Assembly (NCBI GenBank): GCA_951406725.2
Contig: OX597821.1
Span: 118,358,001 to 118,422,000, forward strand
Length of the DNA stretch: 64,000 bases
Reading direction: 5' to 3'
Origin: Octopus vulgaris
Taxonomy: Eukaryota
A program made the position numbers and the translations under genes. The notes below the pieces were generated by a model, which saw nothing but the letters and a program-made list of their open reading frames with translations, did not search any database and was not told where the DNA came from. This document shows positions 2,671-59,634 of the stretch, piece by piece. How positions within the stretch are numbered: position 1 is the stretch's first letter; the number at the start of each line of letters is the position of its first letter.

Positions 2671-2719
2671 CTGTTACAAACAGCAGGAGAGCGAAGATGG
2701 TTAATGTTCTTTGCATCAT
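2671..2719 (-). CDS. First coding exon of a secreted-peptide gene: signal peptide MMQRTLTIFALLLFVT, phase-1 donor
   Basis: GACC-ATG context, 16 codons + 1 nt, hydrophobic core LTIFALLLFV, donor CAG|GTAAGA. TATA box and Inr lie directly upstream. Confidence 0.8.
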
Positions 2720-3900
2720 GGTCGTCTTTTGGTCAATTGCCAGATCAAAAACTGATCCGGGAAGGCTTTAGCGTCGGTATTTATACATTTGGTGAACAAT
2801 TGAAACGAATTGCAAAACGAGTGTGATGGGAATATCTCACGAAAATAATTAAGAAAACAAAAGATGCAAATTAAGACTGACAAAGATCATCCGAAATACG
2901 AATGTCTGAAAGTTATTTTTAATCATATGCTTTTGTTTGTGGAAGCATTAATTGTTTACATTAAAGCAAACTGGATTAGTGGCGTTTGAAATCACCACGT
3001 TTTGTAACACCTGATAGAAATACTATTGTATCTTGGGTAATTTTTCTACACAGAGGAGTCAATAGAAGAAATCCTCCCTTTAAAATGAAAAATATCTTAA
3101 GTTTGTAAATTTTTAAACGTTTACTATATACTAGAACAAATATTTCAGTACGATACTACATGCATTTGTGCACAATAGCGTCGTTAGAAAACTATCAAAT
3201 AATATTACAATAGGATGTACTAGCATCTGTTAAGAGTCCCCGTTCTATAAACAAATTTTGAAAATAATAAAATAAAAGACCACTTAGACGAAGGGTTTCA
3301 ACCGGGGTACATGTTAGATTTTTAGGGACCCACGGGTGCAATATAGTAAATTGGGGAGCCAGTGTACTTTAGACCAGTAGTTTCCAGAGTGGATTTCTAG
3401 TCTTCTAACATTCCAATGGTGCTCTTCCAGGTTTAGAAACCTGTTTAAAAAACGTCCTGAAAAATGTTGTTAGAAATCCTGTCTTTCCTAATTTATTTAT
3501 TACTTTCTTTTCAAAACAAAGACAAAGAATAGATAATTTAAAGTCCCCCAAACATTTATCTATGAAGCTGAGCAGAAAATTCCCCAGGGAATTCCCGAGA
3601 AAAGTGAAAGAAATAATAGTGAGCATAAAGAAAGTCAACAACAATGATGCTGTAAACAGCAGTAACAACAAAATTTAAAAGAATATATATACGCATACAC
3701 TCACACACTGAACGTTTACTATCTACTGGAATATTCAATCTGATACGGCGTGCATTCGTGCACAATAGCGTCGTTAGAAAACAACCGATTAATGTTCCAA
3801 CAGGATGTTCTAACTCACTTCTAGCATCTGTTACAAGGCCCTGTCTTATAAACAAAGATTGAAAATAACACGATGAACGTTACTTAAAATCTATCACAGT
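2717..3900. repeat. Duplicated upstream region, copy 1 (paralogous to 43232-44400)
   Basis: Long near-identical stretches, e.g. 3240-3495 versus 43770-44025. Confidence 0.95.
2750..2785 (-). promoter_or_regulatory. Core promoter: TATA box plus initiator
   Basis: TATAAAT at 2785-2779 and ATCAGTT (TCAGT Inr) at 2756-2750. Putative TSS 2753 is 32 nt from the first T of the TATA box. Both motifs are conserved in the copy at 43266-43301. Confidence 0.75.
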
Positions 3901-26499: not shown

Positions 26500-26713
26500 T
26501 ATCAGTTTCTAGGTTTTTCAATTTTCAGATGTTCTTCCTAGAGGTAAGACAAATTTTTTTCATGTTTGTTGTACACACACGTCTTTGCTAGTATATATGC
26601 AGTGAAGCTATACTATAGCGTCGTATTTATTACGATCGCTATTTTCCAGTAAATATCGGTACTTCGTTGTACCATTTATTTACTTTTATACATATATATA
26701 TATATATATTTAA

Positions 26714-27470
26714 CGATCTCCTGTGTAACCAGAGCCAAGATAACACTAGCCCTAACCCTGTAGAGTCCCCGCCAAAAACATCACATGTAGCAAAACGCAT
26801 AAAATGGACTACAGAGGATTATAGAGATATGTTGAAAGTTTTCTACACAGACCAACCAAACCCAAAGAATAACCGCATTGTACAAACATATACTTCACGT
26901 AGAAACATAGTAGGCAACGAAGTATGCAGATATATAGGCGCAAATAAATTAAGGAATGTACGTAGAGACATAACTAAGAATAAAATGTTAACTGACGCTG
27001 AAATTAGTCAAATTAGGACACAAATATCTCATGACAGGCCAAATGAAAACAGCAACGATGCAGATGAAATAGTTAACAGATACAGAGAACCAATTGTACG
27101 AGCAGTACATCCCAACGAAGAAGCAGAAGAAAGAATAGCGAAGAACAAGTATGTGATAAAGGAAGAGAAAGTATACCTACCTCAAGAACACCAGAATAGA
27201 TATGACACAGAATTTGAGGTGAAAAATAAAGAGAAGGTCGTAGAAGCAAAAGAAGATATTATGAGAGAATTAAGAAAGACTGAGTTTACTGGCATGATCA
27301 ATGGAGGAACGTTACCAAAGCTCTCAAAGAGCATAAAAAAAATAAAACGTAATCATTATATATAATGTTGCTCTGAAACAGATCTCAAGAAATAACGGAA
27401 ATGAAATAACAACCTTAAATAACATAATCTTTTCCACTGCTAAAGTTGTAACTGCTGAACTAGGTATGAG
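26714..27470 (+). mobile_element. N-terminal fragment of an R4/Dong-type LINE ORF
   Basis: KRIKWTTEDY...NKLRNVRRDITKNKMLTDAEI resembles the R4-clade N-terminal domain. Confidence 0.6.
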
Positions 27471-27479
27471 GACGACACA

Positions 27480-29830
27480 GAAAAGAACTGGCCATGTCAA
27501 TAGACTTATTGACATAACCAGAGACATACAGCCTAAAGAAAGCACCAGAAATCTCCCCAATCCGAACTCCCACAAAGCAGATTGGAAATCGATCCAAAGA
27601 GAGATCCCCAGAGAGGACTGGCCCAAATATCTCTCCACACCAGACATTGACATGAAACTAGAATGTTTCATGTCTTCTGTGCAAGCCATATGCCAGAAAT
27701 ATGTCCCGGAGCACAAGGCCAAAACAAATAGGAGCAAGATTCCAAGAGAGAGGAAGATCCTCATGAGACGACGGACGAAGGTTGCAAATCGACTCAACCA
27801 ACATCCCATAAGTAGCAAAACATCACGCCTAAAATCAACACTGATGGAGATCGAAAAAAGGCTGCAACAATCCTATGTGAGGGAGAAAGCAGACAAAGAA
27901 GCCTGGGTTATAAAAATATTAAGTCAAACCCAAAGGCCTTCTTTCATTACGCGAAAGAAACAGCCTCAGTACACTACAAGATAGGACCCCTCCTCCAAAA
28001 GGATGGCTCCCTCACAGACAGTCCAACTAAGATCAGTGAGATACTGAATGACCAGTTCAAAAGTGTCTTTACCACCCCGTTGGAACACAGACAAGTGAAC
28101 GAACCAGTGGACTTCTTTGCCGCCTCACCTATAATCAGCGAGGCAGTTACAATGGAATACATTGATATTAGCGAAGAAGATATACTAATAGCCATAGATG
28201 AAGTGGACACAAACTCAACTGCTGGTCCTGATGGTTTCCTAGCAATCTTCCTCAAATTGTGTAAGCATGCCTTGGCAAAGCCCCTCCAGATTCTCTTCCA
28301 GAGCTTTCTTACAAATGGCAAACTGCCAAGCAAGCTGAAGGAGGGAATAATATGCCCAATACATAAAGGGGGAAGTAGAGCAGATGCCAAAAACTATAGG
28401 CCTATCTCTCTGACTTCACACATCAGCAAAGTCATGAAACGGATAGTCAGAGGGAAACTAATCGCATTCCTTGAAGAAAATAACTTGCTGAGTGATACCC
28501 AGCATGGTTTTCGACCAGGTAGGAGCTGCCTGACCCAGCTCTTACAACATTATGACTGGGTGTTGAGGCAGTTACTCAACAAATCAAATGTGGATGTAAT
28601 ATACTTTTATTTTGCAAAAGCTTTTGACAAGGTGGATCATGGTATGATATGCCATAAACTGCGTAACCTTGGGATAGCTGGAAAACTTGAGGAGTGGTTA
28701 CATGACTTCCTGAAAGATAGGAGTCAGGCAGTAGTAGCTAATGGAGCCACCTATATGAACACACATATAGTGTGGTGTTCCACAGGGCACTGTCTAGGGA
28801 CCACTGCTTTTTATACTGGCCCTCTCAGATATTCCCACAAATGCCCAAATAGCCACCCTTGCATACTATGATACGAAAGTCTCGCAGAAAATACAGAACC
28901 CCAGCGATGTTGCACAACTGCAGCAGGAGTAGGACTCAATTTACAAATGGGCTGAGGAAAATAATATGCAGTTTAATGCTGAAAAATTCCAAGCCCTTGC
29001 GCTACCAGCATCCAAAACTGAATATGAAACTTACAGGGTACACCGGTCCACAGGGAATTTCAATCCCAGAGCCTAAGTCAGTGAGGGACCTGGGTATCGA
29101 CATGAGTGATGATACCTCTTTCCAAGTGCACATTACTAGGATGGCTACAAAGTGCAGACGATTGGCTGAATGGATCCTAAGAACATTCAGAACCAGAGGT
29201 AAGGAAACCATGATGGTCCTCTGGCGGACATTCGTCCTCAGCCACCTGGATTACTGCTCACAGCTATGGTCACCCACCAGTGTGAAATTAGCAGCGGACC
29301 TTGAAGCAATCCAGAGAAGATTCCCAAAGAAGATTGCAACAGCTCAGCTACTGGGAAAGGTTGAAACAGTTAAGACTCTACACCTTGGAGAGAAGACGAG
29401 AGAGGTATGCAGTAATATATATCTGGAAGATCCTGGAAGGAATTGTGCCAAATTTTGGCATTGAAAGCTACACCAATGCCAGAACGGGACGACACTGCAT
29501 AGTGCCAAAGATCCCAGCAATGCCATCACGCTTCAGGACCAGTTACTGCAACAGCCTGGGTTTCAAGGGCCCACAGCTTTTTAATATTCTCCCAAAGAGT
29601 CTGAGGAACTTGCACAAAGTAGATGTAGGGGTTTTTAAATCAAAGCTGGACCTCTTCCTGTCGAGAGTCCCAGATGAACCTACCTCACGGCAAGAGGTGC
29701 AAATGAGGGTAGCTATATCAAACTCCATTCTTCACCAAGTGCCACATATTAGAGGAGGCTCTTAGTAATAACAGTGTAGCAAAACGGCGGTGCATCAGCA
29801 TGGCCACAGCTCTAAGCTGAAACTAGAGAA
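27480..29830 (+). mobile_element. CR1-group LINE, 5'-truncated, frameshifted RT
   Basis: AGPDG, NYRPISLTSHISKVM, QHGFRPGRSCLTQLL, FAKAFDKVDH, VRDLGI, HLDYCSQLWSP and LERRRER spread over several frames; 3' tail followed by (TACA)n. Confidence 0.92.
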
Positions 29831-29885
29831 GAAAATATATATACATACATACATACATACATACATACATACATACATACATACA

Positions 29886-29921
<36 letters not shown>

Positions 29922-30116
29922 TATATATTTATATACATGATTACTTGTGACAAACAATTTTAAGATGTTTGTAATGTGTAACTATATAAAACATACATAC
30001 ATACATACATACATACATACATACATACATACATACATACATACATACATACATACATACATACATACATACATACATACATACAATCGCCGTTGGCGAT
30101 TTCTTTTTTATCTGGC

Positions 30117-31560
30117 ATTTTCTGGCATTTGTATAACTCTCAATGCTGAAATTAGGTACTAACCCTTCTAGTGTTTTCCATACGTAGATTATCACATATC
30201 TGTCGCGCTTTCGCTCCAGGGAGTAAAGTTGCAGTTTGCTCAGCCTATCCCTGTACTTCATCCTCTGCAGTGTTTCAGTCTTTTTTAGTGTAGTAGTCTT
30301 GGACTGCCTCAAGCCCGCTGTTAGTTTGGCACTGTGTGGGGACCATAACTGGGGGCAGTAGTCCAGGTGGCTGAGAACAAAAGTTCTCCACTGGGTCAAC
30401 ATAATTTCTGGATCTTGCTTTGGAAGACCTCAGTATCCATACTGCCAGTTGTCTGCACATTGCTGCCATCTTGGTAATGTGCATATAAAATGATGCGTCA
30501 TTGCGCATACTGATCCCCAAATCTTTTACTGTTTGTGTCTCTAAGATTGTAGTGCCTTCGGGACCTGTGTATGCAGGCTGTAGTGCATTCGTGAGTTGAT
30601 AGTATTGTGCTTGAAATTTTCCAGCATTAAACTGCATGTTATTTATTTCAGCCCACTTCTATATCGAATTCAGGTCCTGCTGTAAGCTTGTGACGTCATC
30701 TTGATTTTTTATTGTCTGTGATAATTTTGTATCATCGCTATAGCTGGTGACAGTGGCTGTCCGAGTGACCGGTGGGCATGATTAAGAAGGCTATTATGAA
30801 CAGCAATGGCCTCCAGAACAGTTCACTTAGGATTTGAGTTTCCTCAGAAAGGGCACCATTGGCTGCAACTACCTGAGTTCTGTCTTTAAGGAAGTCATGT
30901 ATCCATTCTCCTAGTTTACCAGCAATGCCAAGGTCGCGTAGCTTATGATATATCATGCTATGATCCACCTTATCAAATGCCCCTGCAAAGTCAAGGTATA
31001 TCACGCTGACATCTGAATGGCTTAACAGCTGTTTCAAAACCCATTCATGGTGTTGTAGGAATTGTGTGAGGCATGCTGTGTATTGTTCAGTGAGTTATTT
31101 TCTTCTTGGAACATTACCAATTTCTTTTTGATGATTCGCTCCATGACTTTACTGATATGTGAAGTCAGAGAGATTGGCCTGTGATTTTTGGCCTCTACTC
31201 TGCTTCCACCTTTGTGGATATAACATATAATGCCTTCTCTCAGATTTTTTTTAGGAAGTTTACCACTTGCAAGGAAACGTTGGAAAACTATCTGAAGTGG
31301 TTTCGCTAAAGCTTGCTTACATGATTTCAGGAGAATAACCGGGAAGCCACCAGGGCTAATTGCGGAGCATGAGCTCATTTCATCTATGGCCGCTCATACA
31401 CGTCCCTTTTAGAGCTGCAATATTAAAGAATTCAACCGTTTTTTTATCTGCATGTATCCAATGGGGTGGGGAGTGAAGACACTTGTTCACTTCTCCTTCC
31501 TGGGTCCGCAGTCAGTGAGTCATTCTCTTGGAACAATGGTCCTATTTTATATTGTATTGT
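30117..31560 (-). mobile_element. Older CR1-group LINE fragment, tail-to-tail with the previous one
   Basis: RPISLTSHISKVMERI, IYLDFAGAFDKVDH and HLDYCPQLWSP in broken frames. Confidence 0.9.
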
Positions 31561-43131: not shown

Positions 43132-43231
43132 NNNNNNNNNNNNNNNNNNNNNNNNNNNNNNNNNNNNNNNNNNNNNNNNNNNNNNNNNNNNNNNNNNNNN
43201 NNNNNNNNNNNNNNNNNNNNNNNNNNNNNNN
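43132..43231. other. Assembly gap (100 N)
   Basis: Run of N. Confidence 1.
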
Positions 43232-44397
43232 CATGGTTGTCTTTTGGTCAAATTGCCAGATCAAAAACTGATCCGGGAAGGCTTTAGCGTCGGTATTTAT
43301 ACATTTGGTGAACAATTGAAACGAATTGCAAAACATGTGTGATGGGAATATCTCACGAAAATAATTAAGAAAGCAAAAGTTGCAAATTAAGACTGACAAA
43401 GATCATCCGAAATACGAATGTCTGAAAGTTATTTTTAATCATATGCTTTTGTTTGTAGAAGCATTAATTGTTTTCATTAAAGCAAACTGGATTGGTAGCG
43501 TTTGAAATCACCACGTTTTATAATACCTGATAGCAATATCATTATGCCTTGACAAATTTTTCCATACAGAGAATGGGTCAATAGAAGAAATCCTCCCTTT
43601 AAAATGAAAAATATCTTAAGTTTGTAAATTTTTAAACGTTTACTATATACTAGAACAAATATTTCAGTACGATACTACATGCATTTGTGTACAATAGCGT
43701 CGTTAGAAAACTATCAAATAATATTACAATAGGATGTACTAGCATCTGTTAAGCATCAGTTAAATGTCCCCGTTCTATAAACAAATTTTGAAAATAATAA
43801 AATAAAAGACCACTTAGACGAAGGGTTTCAACCGGGGTACATGTTAGATTTTTAGGGACCCACGGGTGCAATATAGTAAATTGGGGAGCCAGTGTACTTT
43901 AGACCAGTAGTTTCCAGAGTGGATTTCTAGTCTTCTAACATTCCAATGGTGCTCTTCCAGGTTTAGAAACCTGTTTAAAAAACGTCCTGAAAAATGTTGC
44001 TAGAAAACCTGTCTTTCCTAATTTACTTTCTAAAACAAGGTCAATGAAAAGATGATTAATAAAAAAAAAACAGAACATTTATATGTGAAGCTGGGCATAA
44101 TACTTAGCAAAAACAACGTCAACAACAAGGATGCCGAGAACAGTAGCAACAACAAAAAATAAATTTTAAAAAAGCAAACACACATACACACAGACTTATC
44201 GTTTACTATCTACTGGAACAAATATTTCAGTCTGATACGGCATGCATTTGTGCACAATAGCGTCAATCGAATAATATTGCTACAGGATGTACTAGCTCAC
44301 TTCTAGCGTCTGTTATAAGCCTCCGTTCTACAAACAATGAAAATAAAACGATGAACGCTACCCAAACTCTATCAGAGTATTGTGCATCTATGTGTAC

Positions 44398-51403: not shown

Positions 51404-53257
51404 TTAGAGTATGTTTAGTTGTGGTCTGTATTTTTGAATAAGATTACTTTCCTTATTTATTCGTGTTTGGTCTGTGGTGTTGTCCGAGCATTGGTATAGT
51501 GGGAAGACTAAGAATTTGGGGGACTTATTGTGTGCACAAAGGTCTAAGTGTCCACTTAGTGGTATCTGTCTTGTGGAGGGGTCCCTCAGTTGTTGTCGGT
51601 GAACTGTCATTCTGTCTCTGAGGGTAAGGCTCGTTTGCCCTATGTAGTCTTCGTGGCATCCTTCACACCTTATGACGTAGAGTAAATTTTTTGATGCGCA
51701 CGTGAAGTTATTTTTTATGATGAATGTGTGTCCCGAGTGGAACTTGTACGACGATCCCTCAATGAGGTGGATGCAGGTCTTACAGTTGGGGCGACCACAT
51801 TTTTTGATGGTGGGCGGTGGGTTTGTGTTGTGTAATTTTGCGTTGGTGAGGAGGTTTTTTAGGGATTTAGGTTGTCTCTTACTTTTTATTATTTTATGAG
51901 CTGCCAGTATTTTTTTCAGGCGTGGGTCTTGATTTAGTTGTGGAATGTTGTTGTATATAATAGTGTAAGCTTCTGCATTCCTTGGGTTGTGTGTTGAGAG
52001 ATAAGGGAGGCTATTGACTGTACTGTGGATGTGTTTGGGTTTTCGAAGGTCTTGAATGTTGATTGATTTGGCCCGTTCTATTCCGTTGTCTACTAGTGAT
52101 GCCGGGTAATGTCTTTCGAGAAGAATTGCCCTTAGTTCCCGGAGTCTTCTATTTCGTGTTGTGTCATTTGAGACAATAGTGCAGATTCTTCTCGCTAGGT
52201 TGAAGGGGATATTTGTCTTTGTGTGTTTTGGGTGATTGGAGGTGAATAGAAGGTATTGTTTAGAGTCAGTGGGTTTGTAATGGATGTCAGTTTCAATGTT
52301 GACGCCTTTTTTAATGATTAGGATGTCAAGAAAAGGGAGTTGGTCCTGACTATATTCCATTGTGAATTGAATGTTGTTATTTACACTGTTGATAAGGTTT
52401 TTGAAGTCTATAAGTTGGTCGAGTGTGTGGGACCATAGGATGAGGCAATCATCTAAGTAGCGTTTCCAGTTCTCCAACAGGTATTTGTGGAAAGACTGGC
52501 CGTACTTATATTTGGATTTTTCATAGATATGTGATTCCAGGTAGGCCATCACCAGGTTTGCATAGGTAGGTGCAACTTTCGTACCCATTGCAGTCCCTGA
52601 GACCTGTCTGTAAGTGTTGTTGTGGAAATACATGAAGTTGTTTTGCAGAATAAATTTGAGGCCCTCAATTATGAATTCTTTTTTAATTCTTTCCGGGATC
52701 TCATTGGGATATTTATCCAGCCAGAATTTAATGGCTTCCAGTCCAAATTCATGTGGGATTGTGGAGTAAAGATTAATAACATCAAAAGAAACGATTAAGG
52801 TGTCTTTATCGGCATGTTTGGGGAGATGGTTTAATAGGTCCAGGTCATCTCTTACAATACTTGGAATGTGTTTCAGTATTGGCTTTAAGATGATATCTAT
52901 AAAGTTGCTAAGTCTGTGTGTTTCACAACTTGGGCCTGCCACTATTGGTCTCAGTTTGAGATCAGTGGGATGTGGTATAGTGATGCAGGTTGAAGTGGAC
53001 TTTTTGCAAGCTTCTGTGATAATTTGACTCTTGTGTATTTTTGGAAGCCCATAGAGTGTGCTGGTTTTGCAATTAAATTTAGTAATGTAGTCGCATTCCT
53101 TTGCTGTCAAGTCATTCCGGTGTTGGTAAATGAGTGCCTTCAGATTGGTCATTGTTTTGGATTGCTGGTAGTCGACTACTCTTTCGTAGTATGTGGTATC
53201 CTCTAAGAGGAGAGATACAGAGTTTTTATATTGCTCAGTATTCATAACGTGGTACAT
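51404..53257 (-). CDS. PLE reverse transcriptase plus GIY-YIG endonuclease (617 aa, uninterrupted, N-terminally truncated)
   Basis: LYGLPKIHK, LRPIVAG, SFDVINLYSTI, GTAMGTKVAPTYANL, RYLDD, LPFLD, YKPTD; CGRPNCKTC linker; LYVIRCEGCHEDYIGQT...R...H...H. Confidence 0.95.
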   Translation of the reverse strand: MYHVMNTEQYKNSVSLLLEDTTYYERVVDYQQSKTMTNLKALIYQHRNDLTAKECDYITKFNCKTSTLYGLPKIHKSQIITEACKKSTSTCITIPHPTDLKLRPIVAGPSCETHRLSNFIDIILKPILKHIPSIVRDDLDLLNHLPKHADKDTLIVSFDVINLYSTIPHEFGLEAIKFWLDKYPNEIPERIKKEFIIEGLKFILQNNFMYFHNNTYRQVSGTAMGTKVAPTYANLVMAYLESHIYEKSKYKYGQSFHKYLLENWKRYLDDCLILWSHTLDQLIDFKNLINSVNNNIQFTMEYSQDQLPFLDILIIKKGVNIETDIHYKPTDSKQYLLFTSNHPKHTKTNIPFNLARRICTIVSNDTTRNRRLRELRAILLERHYPASLVDNGIERAKSINIQDLRKPKHIHSTVNSLPYLSTHNPRNAEAYTIIYNNIPQLNQDPRLKKILAAHKIIKSKRQPKSLKNLLTNAKLHNTNPPPTIKKCGRPNCKTCIHLIEGSSYKFHSGHTFIIKNNFTCASKNLLYVIRCEGCHEDYIGQTSLTLRDRMTVHRQQLRDPSTRQIPLSGHLDLCAHNKSPKFLVFPLYQCSDNTTDQTRINKESNLIQKYRPQLNIL

Positions 53258-56028: not shown

Positions 56029-57319
56029 CGAGGGACGTTCAATAAGTAATTCCCCTGACCCATTTGCAGTTGTTTGATCTAGTTGAAATTTTGCATGTGC
56101 AATTATTTATATCTCTATAGATGAAGTAGAAAATAACATCTTTGAACTAATTGTGGTTTCTGATTTACAGGTGTTTGAACTGAGTCAAGTGTGAAATGGA
56201 GCATGTTGAGTGTCGAGCAGTGATTCGGTTTTTGTATTTGAAAGGACGCACACCACGGGAGACTTTTGATGAAATGAAAGTAACTTATGGTGATGATGCC
56301 CCATCATATGACCTTGTAAAACGCTGGCATCGTGAATTCAAACATGGTCGGAACTCTGTGGAAACAGCTCCCAGATCTGGTCGCCCCTCTTCTGCCGTCC
56401 ATGAGGCATCTGTCCGTCAGGTTGAGGCTGCCATTTTGGAAGATCGACGCATAACTATTCGCCAAATAGCCCATGAGGTCAAGATTAGTACCGGGTCTGT
56501 GGAAACTATCATTCATGACCATTTGCATATGCAAAAGGTGTCTGCCAGATGAATTCCCAGGCTGCTCACACCTTTCCAGAAACAAGAACGCGTCGAGTGC
56601 TCGAGGATGAATTTGGAGATGTGCCAAGAAGATGAGTCAAAATTTTCAAAAGACTGATTACACAGGATAAAACCTGGGTCCATCACTATGATCCAGAGAC
56701 CAAAGCCCAGTCAATGCAGTGGAAGCACCGTGATTCACCTTCTCCAAAGAAGGCAAGGGTGCAGCCCTCCGCTGGTAAGGTCATGCTCACAGTCTTCAGG
56801 GACCAGGACGGAGTAGTGATGGCAGATTTCCTGGCAAAGGGTACCACAATTACAGGAGCCTATTGTGCTTCACTTTTGAGGAAATTAAGAGAAGCTATAA
56901 AAATCAAGAGGCGGGGCAAGATCAGCAAAGGTATCCTCCTTCTGCAGGATAACGCTCCGGTCCATAACTCGCTTGTCGCCAGATCAGAAGCACAGGCGTG
57001 CGGCTATGAACTCCTCCCCCATCCCCTACTCTCCTGACCTTGCACCCTCTGATTTTCACCTCTTCCCAGCCATGAAGTTGTTTTTGAAAGGAAAAGCGTT
57101 TCCCAGATGATGCAGCCTTGATTTTTGAAGTCACGTCGTGGTCGGATGACCAAGCTGGGGTCTTCTAAAAAAACAGTCTCCAGAGCTGCATCAAACGATG
57201 GGAGAAATGCGTAACTCTGGGTGGTTCCTATGTAGAAAAAGAATAATAACTGTGCCAAGTTTCGTTGCTCTACTGCTATGGGAAGTGGGTCAGGGGCATT
57301 ACTTATTGAACGCCCCTCG
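56029..57319 (+). mobile_element. Full-length inactive mariner (DD34D, irritans-like)
   Basis: TA TSD and TIRs CGAGGGACGTTCAATAAGTAAT / ATTACTTATTGAACGCCCCTCG. Transposase from ATG 56196 has a stop in AR*IPRLL and frameshifts; QDNAPVH and YSPDLAPSDFHLF are present. Confidence 0.95.
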
Positions 57320-57542
57320 TATGTATTCATATATATATATATATATGCGTACATTTAAAACTATATGATACACCTTGCAATAATGGCAAATTTTTGTTGA
57401 CTTTAGGATCTTGAAGAGACTGTTTCAAATCTATGTTGATGTCAAAGTGTAATTTGATTGCAACTCATATAAATTGGGAGTCCTTATATTCATTTAGACT
57501 TTGTCTTATGAAAAACGAAAAAGAAACTAGAATACACCAAAT

Positions 57543-57876: not shown

Positions 57877-58046
57877 TCAACATACGAGATGCCAATGCCA
57901 ATGCCTATTCCACCAAGGCCACCCATGCAACCATCCACGACAACAATGTGCTCTCCACCAGGGGATTATCGTTGTTCCACAACACCTCTGAGTATATGGA
58001 TTATACCAGTGACCACCACAGTAATTCCAATAGCAAGACTGCACTG
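57877..58046 (-). CDS. Terminal exon of a Trp/Cys/His-rich secreted peptide: (A)VQS-CYWNYCGGHWYNPYTQRCCGTTIIPWWRAHCCRGWLHGWPWWNRHWHWHLVC*
   Basis: Acceptor TTTTCTTATTTTACAG|CAG, phase 1, open to TGA at 57879-57877; VQS signal-peptidase site; galaxin-like dicysteine motif; downstream polyA signals. Confidence 0.8.
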
Positions 58047-58643
58047 CTGTAAAATAAGAAAATAATCGAAATGAGTACAGGAAAGTGTATTATACACAAA
58101 TACACACACATTTAAAAAAATAAAATTTATTCAGTCAAGAAGTTCTTATTGCATTAAAAAGCTATATGAAATATATCTAAATTATATGAAAACTTGTTTT
58201 AGAAAAGCTAATTCACAAAGATCTGAATGTATGGAAATGCCCGGGGTTCTTTTTTGTTTGGCTGCCGGTTTTTCAATTTCTGCAATTTTGTTCCAATTGA
58301 TTTCAAGTTTGGTGTTGTTAAGTATGCTTATTATTGACATGAGATGAACTTTCGTCATAAGTCAATAAATTAAGAACTAATAGCTCTAAAGGGTTGCAAA
58401 TTTTGAGTTGTTTTAGCCGATCGAAACCCATCGATATATATATAACGCTGGAAAAGTGATTACAAAAGACCACGTGATTTTTGTGCTGTTTTCCAGCTTG
58501 TGCCCATCTTTTTCTACTCTTAAAAATAATGTGTTGTTTAAACCTTTTTCGAATTAAATGCATACTGATTGCGAAAACCTACAAAATATGCTGCTTACAC
58601 GGTTTCTTAAAATCATTTTCGCTTATTAAATACTTAAAACATG

Positions 58644-59139: not shown

Positions 59140-59545
59140 TCTTTACTCTCTTTTACTTGTGTCAGTCATTTGACTGCGGCCATGCTGGAGCATCGCCTTT
59201 AATCGAGCAACTCGACCCCGGGACTTATTCTTTGTAAGCCCAGTACTTATTCTATCGGTCTCTTTTGCCGAACCGCTGAGTTACGGGGACATAAACACAC
59301 CAGCATCGGTTGTCAAACAATGCTAGGAGGACAAACACAAACATATACGCACACACATATATACATATATATACATATATACGACTGGCTTCTTTCAGTT
59401 TCCATCTACCAAATCCACTCAAAAGGCTTTGGTCGGTCCGAGGCTATAGTAGAAGACACTTGCCCAAGGTACCACACAGTGAGACTGAACCCGGAACCAT
59501 GTGGTTGGTAAACAAGCTACTTACCACACAGCCACTCCTGCGCCT
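59140..59545 (-). mobile_element. Full-length tRNA-derived SINE
   Basis: Head GGCGCAGGAGTGGCTGTGTGGTAAGTAGC...GGTTCAGT, internal TA/TG tract, tail GCATGGCCGCAGTCAAATGACTG. Confidence 0.9.
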
Positions 59546-59634
59546 ATATATTCTTAATATAAAAGGAAAGGAAAAATATTTTTGTCAAATTTATATCTAC
59601 AAATGCATATACATAAATACACACATTCATAGAA

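Follow-up and report, generated by a model that had tools for sequence, protein, structure and literature searches.

A short tryptophan- and histidine-rich peptide of galaxin-like descent encoded by a two-exon gene in an Octopus vulgaris tandem cluster

Coral galaxins and sponge calcarins (PF24748, PTHR34490) are described, in the accessible parts of the source papers, as secreted proteins with dicysteine (CC) pairs spaced 10-15 residues apart and a single cysteine at each end, and they are predicted to form chained beta-hairpins in which the first Cys of one pair bonds the second Cys of the previous pair (PMC12419799). Calcarins carry 10-23 CC pairs (PMC12419799), coral galaxins are acidic proteins of ~300 residues (pI about 4.5; PMC2726143), and both are tied to biomineral matrix (PMC2726143, PMC12419799). 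The closest cephalopod system is that of the squid Euprymna scolopes, whose ten cationic dicysteine-repeat proteins (EsGal1-10) are expressed in the light organ and the accessory nidamental gland, three of them having been localised to epithelia, and of which synthetic single repeats inhibit bacteria at 50-300 uM, as the accessible part of that report has it (PMC12773714). What galaxins do outside biomineralisation is an open question, and the squid evidence comes from artificial fragments. To our knowledge, Octopus vulgaris has neither a light organ nor an accessory nidamental gland.

Here we describe an octopus gene whose product shares with coral galaxins and calcarins a signal peptide and the CC spacing, may share the end cysteines and the chained hairpins predicted for them, and has in common with the squid proteins a cationic dicysteine-repeat character. 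Judged by their descriptions, EsGal1-10 are set apart as long multi-repeat proteins that were active as synthetic fragments, whereas this gene yields about one repeat as its whole product, with a Trp/His-rich tail. The gene lies partly in the window, by which we mean the whole 64,000-nucleotide stretch of DNA that was analysed. On the minus strand, 170 nt in frame 3 read VQS, a 52-residue peptide with 10 Trp, 7 Cys, 6 His, 4 Arg, 4 Tyr and no Asp or Glu, and TGA, and these are preceded by a pyrimidine tract and TTTTACAG/CAG. Joining this exon in phase 1 to a 49-nt exon with a GT donor gives exactly CAI9727409.1 (A0AA36B4X6), a 72-residue "hypothetical predicted protein" of Octopus vulgaris and the sole match of the protein search. 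Since the join equals a database protein, the exon is not a chance reading frame: it is the second exon of a two-exon octopus gene that has already been annotated but not named. The intron (8,049 nt, phase 1, GT-AG) starts at a GTAAGA donor and places exon 1 ~2.1 kb past the window end, and a pattern search for a signal exon inside the window returned no match. The features of the gene, all on the minus strand, are:

57877..58046, minus strand: coding part of exon 2, with (A)VQS, the mature peptide C21-C72 and the stop codon; read from the sequence, equal to CAI9727409.1 and found in spliced contigs
58047..58076, minus strand: pyrimidine tract and acceptor, with the used first AG of a NAGNAG at 58048-58047; from the sequence and contig ends
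58047..64000, minus strand: part of the intron lying in the window, continuing past it to exon 1; from the exon join, loose contig ends and the read-through contig of run X18
Extended position 66096-66144 (G000:C8:118424096-118424144), outside the window, minus strand: exon 1, a hydrophobic signal-peptide exon of 49 nt; the join equals CAI9727409.1
57542..57876, minus strand: 3' UTR, with AATAAA at 57561-57556 and 57548-57543; from the sequence and the ends of contigs X5 and X6
58033..58035, minus strand: codon TGC of the extra Cys21, aligned with TAC (Tyr) in paralogue B
57880..57939, minus strand: 20-residue W/H-rich tail from after the last CC to the terminal Cys, with a doubled TGGCAT hexamer giving HWHWH

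The initial annotation, made from the letters of the window alone, had proposed a hidden phase-1 acceptor exon of a signal-peptide precursor. The exon and its role are real, and the peptide, its residue counts and the two AATAAA signals (~320 nt past the stop codon) were all reproduced from the sequence, but the exon was not hidden, as the assembly annotation already holds CAI9727409.1. Among all stop-free 52-codon stretches in 364 kb read in six frames, this peptide has the highest Trp count, and the next highest (9 Trp) belongs to a simple repeat.

Sequencing-run contigs show that the gene is transcribed and spliced. Contigs leave the genome at 58050 in all four runs of the first set and in three of the four runs of the second set; in total, contigs stopping at this position come from 6 runs, 6 studies and 5 organism labels, with the junction letters seen for three. 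First-set contigs continue 68-103 letters beyond 58050, off the genomic stretch, and in three second-set runs the loose ends agree with the terminal stretch of exon 1 for 30, 27 and 21 nt, so that contigs of three runs carry the exact exon 1-exon 2 junction. Although the runs were taken as RNA by guess and not by record, the join crosses an 8-kb intron and no processed copy was found in the genome, which argues that these contigs represent spliced RNA; the contig of run X18, in turn, reads across the acceptor into the intron, as expected of genomic DNA. Since exon 1 itself ends ACAG, a stop at 58050 means that the first AG was used. The NAGNAG option that had been proposed is thus present in the sequence, and every spliced contig seen takes the first AG, none taking the second (contigs drop rare forms). 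As for polyadenylation, which had been expected alongside splicing, the contigs of X5 and X6 stop at 57542 and 57546, shortly after the first AATAAA, but no poly(A) tail was seen in the contigs.

The gene belongs to a tandem cluster of galaxin-like genes. Its signal exon recurs at window 2719 (paralogue B), at extended position 103990 (C), at 43234 (D) and twice at C8:35.92-35.96 Mb (G and H). In both B and C the second exon is intact and lies in the same acceptor context as in this gene, with which they share the 3' UTR (75% identity), the signal exon (82-88%) and the intron flank. G and H, with 14 and 10 CC pairs respectively, share the signal exon and part of the 3' UTR. Two members of the cluster reach into the window:

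2671..2719, minus strand: signal exon of paralogue B, whose exon 2 (4 CC) lies ~1.5 kb before the window start, at L014:8253-8491
43232..43352, minus strand: 5' flank and ATG of paralogue D, a probable fourth copy broken by the assembly gap 43132-43231

The shared signal exon and intron flanks, together with the 3' UTR shared with B, show common descent with accepted galaxin-like members, so that the galaxin resemblance first suggested by the cysteine pattern is borne out through neighbouring paralogues. Against the Pfam Galaxin_repeat profile PF24748 (cut-off 28 bits), G (C8:35.95 Mb) scored 120 bits, O. bimaculoides A0A0L8FU16 50.1, B 37.5, O. sinensis XP_036361356.1 37.4 and C 19.1, whereas the peptide itself scored 16.0-16.3; relatives that pass the cut-off carry 4-14 CC pairs. 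With its two CC pairs and its score under the cut-off, the peptide is a truncated galaxin variant rather than a canonical member. The closest named phmmer matches are Octopus proteins of the galaxin-like family, including A0A0L8FU16 ("Galaxin-like repeats domain-containing", E 1.7e-8) and XP_036361356.1 (annotated "galaxin-like"), and the initial view that the peptide lies outside any described family is therefore not supported.

A search for the family across the whole genome returned 47 matches, and the 30 that came with loci were considered. Together with this gene and C, they amount to at least 11 intact CC-array ORFs, besides fragments and tandem-repeat artefacts; four tandem-repeat matches to PF24748 (L063, L074, L080, L083) are likely false and were not counted. 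The octopus galaxin-like family thus exceeds the two members cited in the accessible part of PMC12773714. The number of CC pairs runs through 2, 3, 4, 9, 10, 14 and 28 within this one genome, as if the repeat acted like an accordion. A second cluster at C8:35.99-36.17 Mb (L061, L062, L064-L066, L082) holds five 9-CC ORFs with PWW and a degenerate copy, and four of the five end in His-rich tails. No convincing signal exon turned up in a crude scan for the five ORFs of C8:35.99-36.16 Mb, which were consequently counted as ORFs and not as complete genes. The 28-CC ORF (L055, G000:C1:213.36 Mb) has an N-terminal W/H/P repeat region, and none of the signal exons listed by the signal-exon scan belongs to it.

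Several further observations concern the other members. A 100-N assembly gap directly follows the ATG of the probable paralogue D, and the 1.2 kb upstream of D match the corresponding sequence of B at 83% identity. The leader of XP_036361356.1 equals that of B exactly, while its mature part reaches at best 42% identity in this assembly; since this mature part has no close match here, its orthologue probably lies in the gap. Moreover, in CAI9727408.1 (350 aa) the first 56 residues of B are joined to a membrane protein with a MANEC domain; this fusion is probably an error in the gene model and masks the 95-residue galaxin-like B. All six paralogous 5' flanks (L004, window 2720-2800, L042 and L045) keep a TATA-like box ~28 nt before a TCAG initiator-like motif, which we take to be the core promoter. 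Searches by title and by the start of abstracts, outside subscription journals and the PNAS SI Appendix, found no paper on this gene or cluster, and no literature was found on cephalopod peptides rich in both Trp and His. The accessible part of a skin-mucus proteome supplement (PMC10138644) contains neither the word "galaxin" nor the accessions of three relatives.

The mature peptide (52 aa, 6.7 kDa, pI 8.8) is 27% aromatic and 19% Trp, with a computed net charge of +3.6 (about +4) at pH 7.4 and about +8.5 at pH 5.5. The leader encoded by exon 1 is hydrophobic (Kyte-Doolittle peak 3.6) and common to annotated galaxin-like proteins, and on this hydropathy and homology the product is likely secreted, with a predicted cleavage after VQS. 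Its two CC pairs are spaced by 13, within the galaxin range, with the single Cys C26 lying 12 residues before C38, as in galaxins, and C72 lying 20 after C52, a longer distance than theirs. The cysteine count is even in all 12 relatives, which have exactly two single Cys flanking the CC array (in the 36-Mb and C1 ORFs, the exon start was chosen by eye). This copy alone, among 13 sequences, has a third single Cys, Cys21, at the predicted mature N-terminus, so that the odd count noticed at the outset is real and peculiar to it.

Comparison of single CC units suggests how this architecture arose. Unit 1 matches the first unit of B, XP_036361356.1 and A0A0L8FU16 (scores 56, 42 and 51), and unit 2 matches the fourth unit of B and A0A0L8FU16 (54 and 53), while in XP_036361356.1 the third unit fits better (31 versus 18); the other units of B and A0A0L8FU16 score at most 17. 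This pattern points to an internal deletion, and an in-frame loss of the two middle CC units from a B-like four-CC ancestor is likely and would be the simplest account of this copy. A0A0L8FU16 and XP_036361356.1 resemble the peptide in signal type, in the first CC unit and in having an aromatic/His tail that closes with a single Cys, and A0A0L8FU16 also in a PWW-bearing last unit and an HLVC end, but both have 4 CC and 10 Cys in ~75 residues and 3-9% Trp, where this peptide has 2 CC, 7 Cys and 19% Trp. Since A0A0L8FU16 already has a WWW/His tail ending HLVC, the W/H tail would predate the loss of units. It was likely lengthened here, partly via the doubled hexamer, and is 7 residues longer than those of B and A0A0L8FU16. 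The 36-Mb and C1 ORFs likewise have ends rich in Trp and His, and the tail, first regarded as foreign to any described family, is thus of a kind found across the octopus galaxin-like family.

As for the fold, an AlphaFold2 model of paralogue H is a hairpin chain (pLDDT 78), while that of the peptide itself is uninformative (pLDDT 49), and its first three structural neighbours in the Atlas are galaxin clusters with TM below 0.5. By the chain rule of galaxins, the disulfides would be C26-C38, C39-C51 and C52-C72, the last of which would close the W/H tail as a 20-residue loop, leaving Cys21 free.

The mature part has diverged faster than its surroundings. Compared with B, 46 of 123 nt of mature codons differ (37%), versus 72 of 292 in the 3' UTR (25%; Fisher p=0.012) and ~18% in the upstream 1.2 kb (17-25% in flanking non-coding sequence overall). 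A conserved leader with a hypervariable mature part is typical of defence and venom peptides. The paralogue comparison by dN/dS that had been suggested gave values below 1 against B (0.49/0.70 across 41 codons aligned by hand, and 0.62/0.69 once Cys is left out), and since a ratio of ~0.7-0.9 rests on ~20 synonymous sites, positive selection of the mature part is not established; relaxed constraint or alignment error could also be the source of the divergence. In the signal exon, dN is 0.09 and dS 0.31, from few sites. A ~99% identical contig of run X18 carries R48K, H50Y and H69Y, with no synonymous change listed, and the contig of X11 carries H69Y; three non-synonymous changes out of three in X18 are unremarkable (p about 0.57). 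No change at Cys or Trp was listed among the four second-set runs.

Considering these features together, our tentative preference, held at slightly less than an even chance, goes to a disulfide-tied, cationic, Trp-rich antimicrobial peptide acting on an epithelial or egg surface. The secreted 52-residue product would carry a three-disulfide chain of galaxin type that pins the W/H tail as a loop; the free Cys21 might dimerise the peptide or tether it to mucus or matrix, Trp and Arg would bind bacterial membranes, leading to killing, and protonation of His at low pH could strengthen it. The peptide has the features of its class, being cationic, aromatic-rich, short and made with a leader, and we prefer this reading over a structural matrix because the product corresponds to about one repeat, is charged at both neutral and acidic pH and is rich in Trp, and because synthetic single repeats of Euprymna inhibit bacteria. 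The fast divergence of the mature part behind a conserved leader was also counted in its favour, as was the absence of acidic residues, unlike in coral skeletal galaxins. In its high Trp content, Pro-Trp-Trp, Arg and lack of acidic residues the peptide also recalls indolicidin; this is a likeness in composition only, as indolicidin-type peptides are short linear cathelicidin products of unrelated origin, without a disulfide chain. Against the antimicrobial reading stand the synthetic nature of the partial squid repeats and their high micromolar active levels, a dN/dS against B that does not exceed 1, a disulfide map drawn by analogy only and the 16 bits of the peptide alone. Galaxin-like proteins elsewhere, moreover, are mostly matrix or biomineral proteins in the accessible parts of PMC12419799 and PMC2726143. 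The strongest competitor, rather unlikely in our estimate, is a component of a structural matrix or coat, such as that of sucker cuticle, mucus, egg chorion or the cement of egg strings, in which Cys21 would cross-link chains while Trp, His and Tyr faces self-assemble through aromatic and pH-dependent interactions. Terminal cysteines of secreted galaxin matrix proteins have been proposed to make intermolecular bonds (PMC2726143, accessible part), Cys21 is unique to this copy with no change listed there in four runs, the His-to-Tyr changes preserve aromaticity, and other octopus galaxin-like ORFs bear W/H/P low-complexity ends. However, shrinkage to two CC pairs and fast mature divergence are more in keeping with a small effector than with a scaffold, and the peptide is cationic, with no acidic residues.

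In a Cu/Zn-binding or pH-switched peptide, the six His in 52 residues, with the HWHWH run, would be the functional ligands, and His-rich tails do recur in the galaxin-like ORFs at C8:36 Mb. But H69Y appears in two runs and H50Y in one, and the replacement of two of six His by Tyr speaks against their being fixed metal ligands; paralogue B has FEY at the aligned place, and the mature N-terminus lacks Xaa-Xaa-His, the N-terminal metal-site motif. The metal-binding and pH-switch roles raised initially are thereby weakened, and we consider them improbable. Egg protection and a high-refractive-index secreted material, also raised initially, are further candidate roles. We give a similarly low probability to a duplicate drifting under relaxed selection, in which the deletion, the slippage expansion and the stray Cys would be early decay: the dN/dS near 0.7-0.9 and the wholly non-synonymous (if unremarkable) X18 differences would suit it, but the frame is open, neither the GT-AG sites nor any of the seven Cys is damaged, whole CC units were removed in frame, spliced-type contigs come from 6 studies and 5 organism labels, and the signal exon appears constrained at its few sites. 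Least probable of all is a salivary (venom-gland) peptide. Its size, disulfides and divergence pattern would fit, as would the two-exon layout of signal and mature parts that many venom peptides have; nothing, however, links the gene to a gland, and no venom or salivary title appears among the papers listed for galaxin and octopus.

The antimicrobial reading can be taken further, to a natural single-repeat antimicrobial with a three-disulfide mini-scaffold, a Trp/His loop, a newly gained free-Cys anchor or dimer and an acid switch, set within an octopus expansion, so far unrecognised, that comprises at least 11 galaxin-like ORFs. This extended version, as a whole, we consider unlikely. If true, it would represent the first natural galaxin cut to its minimal active unit, and the octopus expansion would undercut the tie of galaxin expansion to squid symbiotic organs. 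A natural product of 52 residues and about one repeat can be synthesised whole, which makes both the choice between antimicrobial and matrix function and the predicted disulfide chain directly testable. Small to the minimum, dense in Trp and with a presumably free Cys, this product also lends itself well to such tests.

Other identities were considered and set aside. A transposable-element origin, which had been named as a possible refutation, was rejected: the DNA search found three places and the protein search one strong place (both lower bounds), and the exon is spliced to a signal exon, although a mariner remnant lies only a few hundred bases past the 3' UTR. For the IGFL family (PF14653) the score was 16.8-17.6 bits, drawn from positions 9-47 of the 83 in the profile and below the cut-off of 25; it likely stems from the shared C..CC..CC pattern. 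A sequence-profile search of the PDB had no hit at E up to 1 and Foldseek with the model of paralogue H no match at E up to 0.001, so that neither search found a solved structure for the galaxin-like family; an ESM Atlas feature search returned no usable hit, and a word search with exon 2 of paralogue B no candidate.

The surrounding DNA also holds mobile elements. The mariner remnant is a broken mariner/Mos1-type transposase with HTH_48 and Transposase_1 pieces (window 56050-57310), and a very high-copy SINE-like repeat inside the intron (window 59149-59550) dominates the matching contigs. Two broken LINE-type reverse-transcriptase copies lie in opposite orientations at window 26600-31400. 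Finally, an intact-looking 617-residue reverse-transcriptase ORF (RVT_1; window 51404-53257, minus strand) has duplicated sequence on its flanks and presumably belongs to a Penelope-like element.
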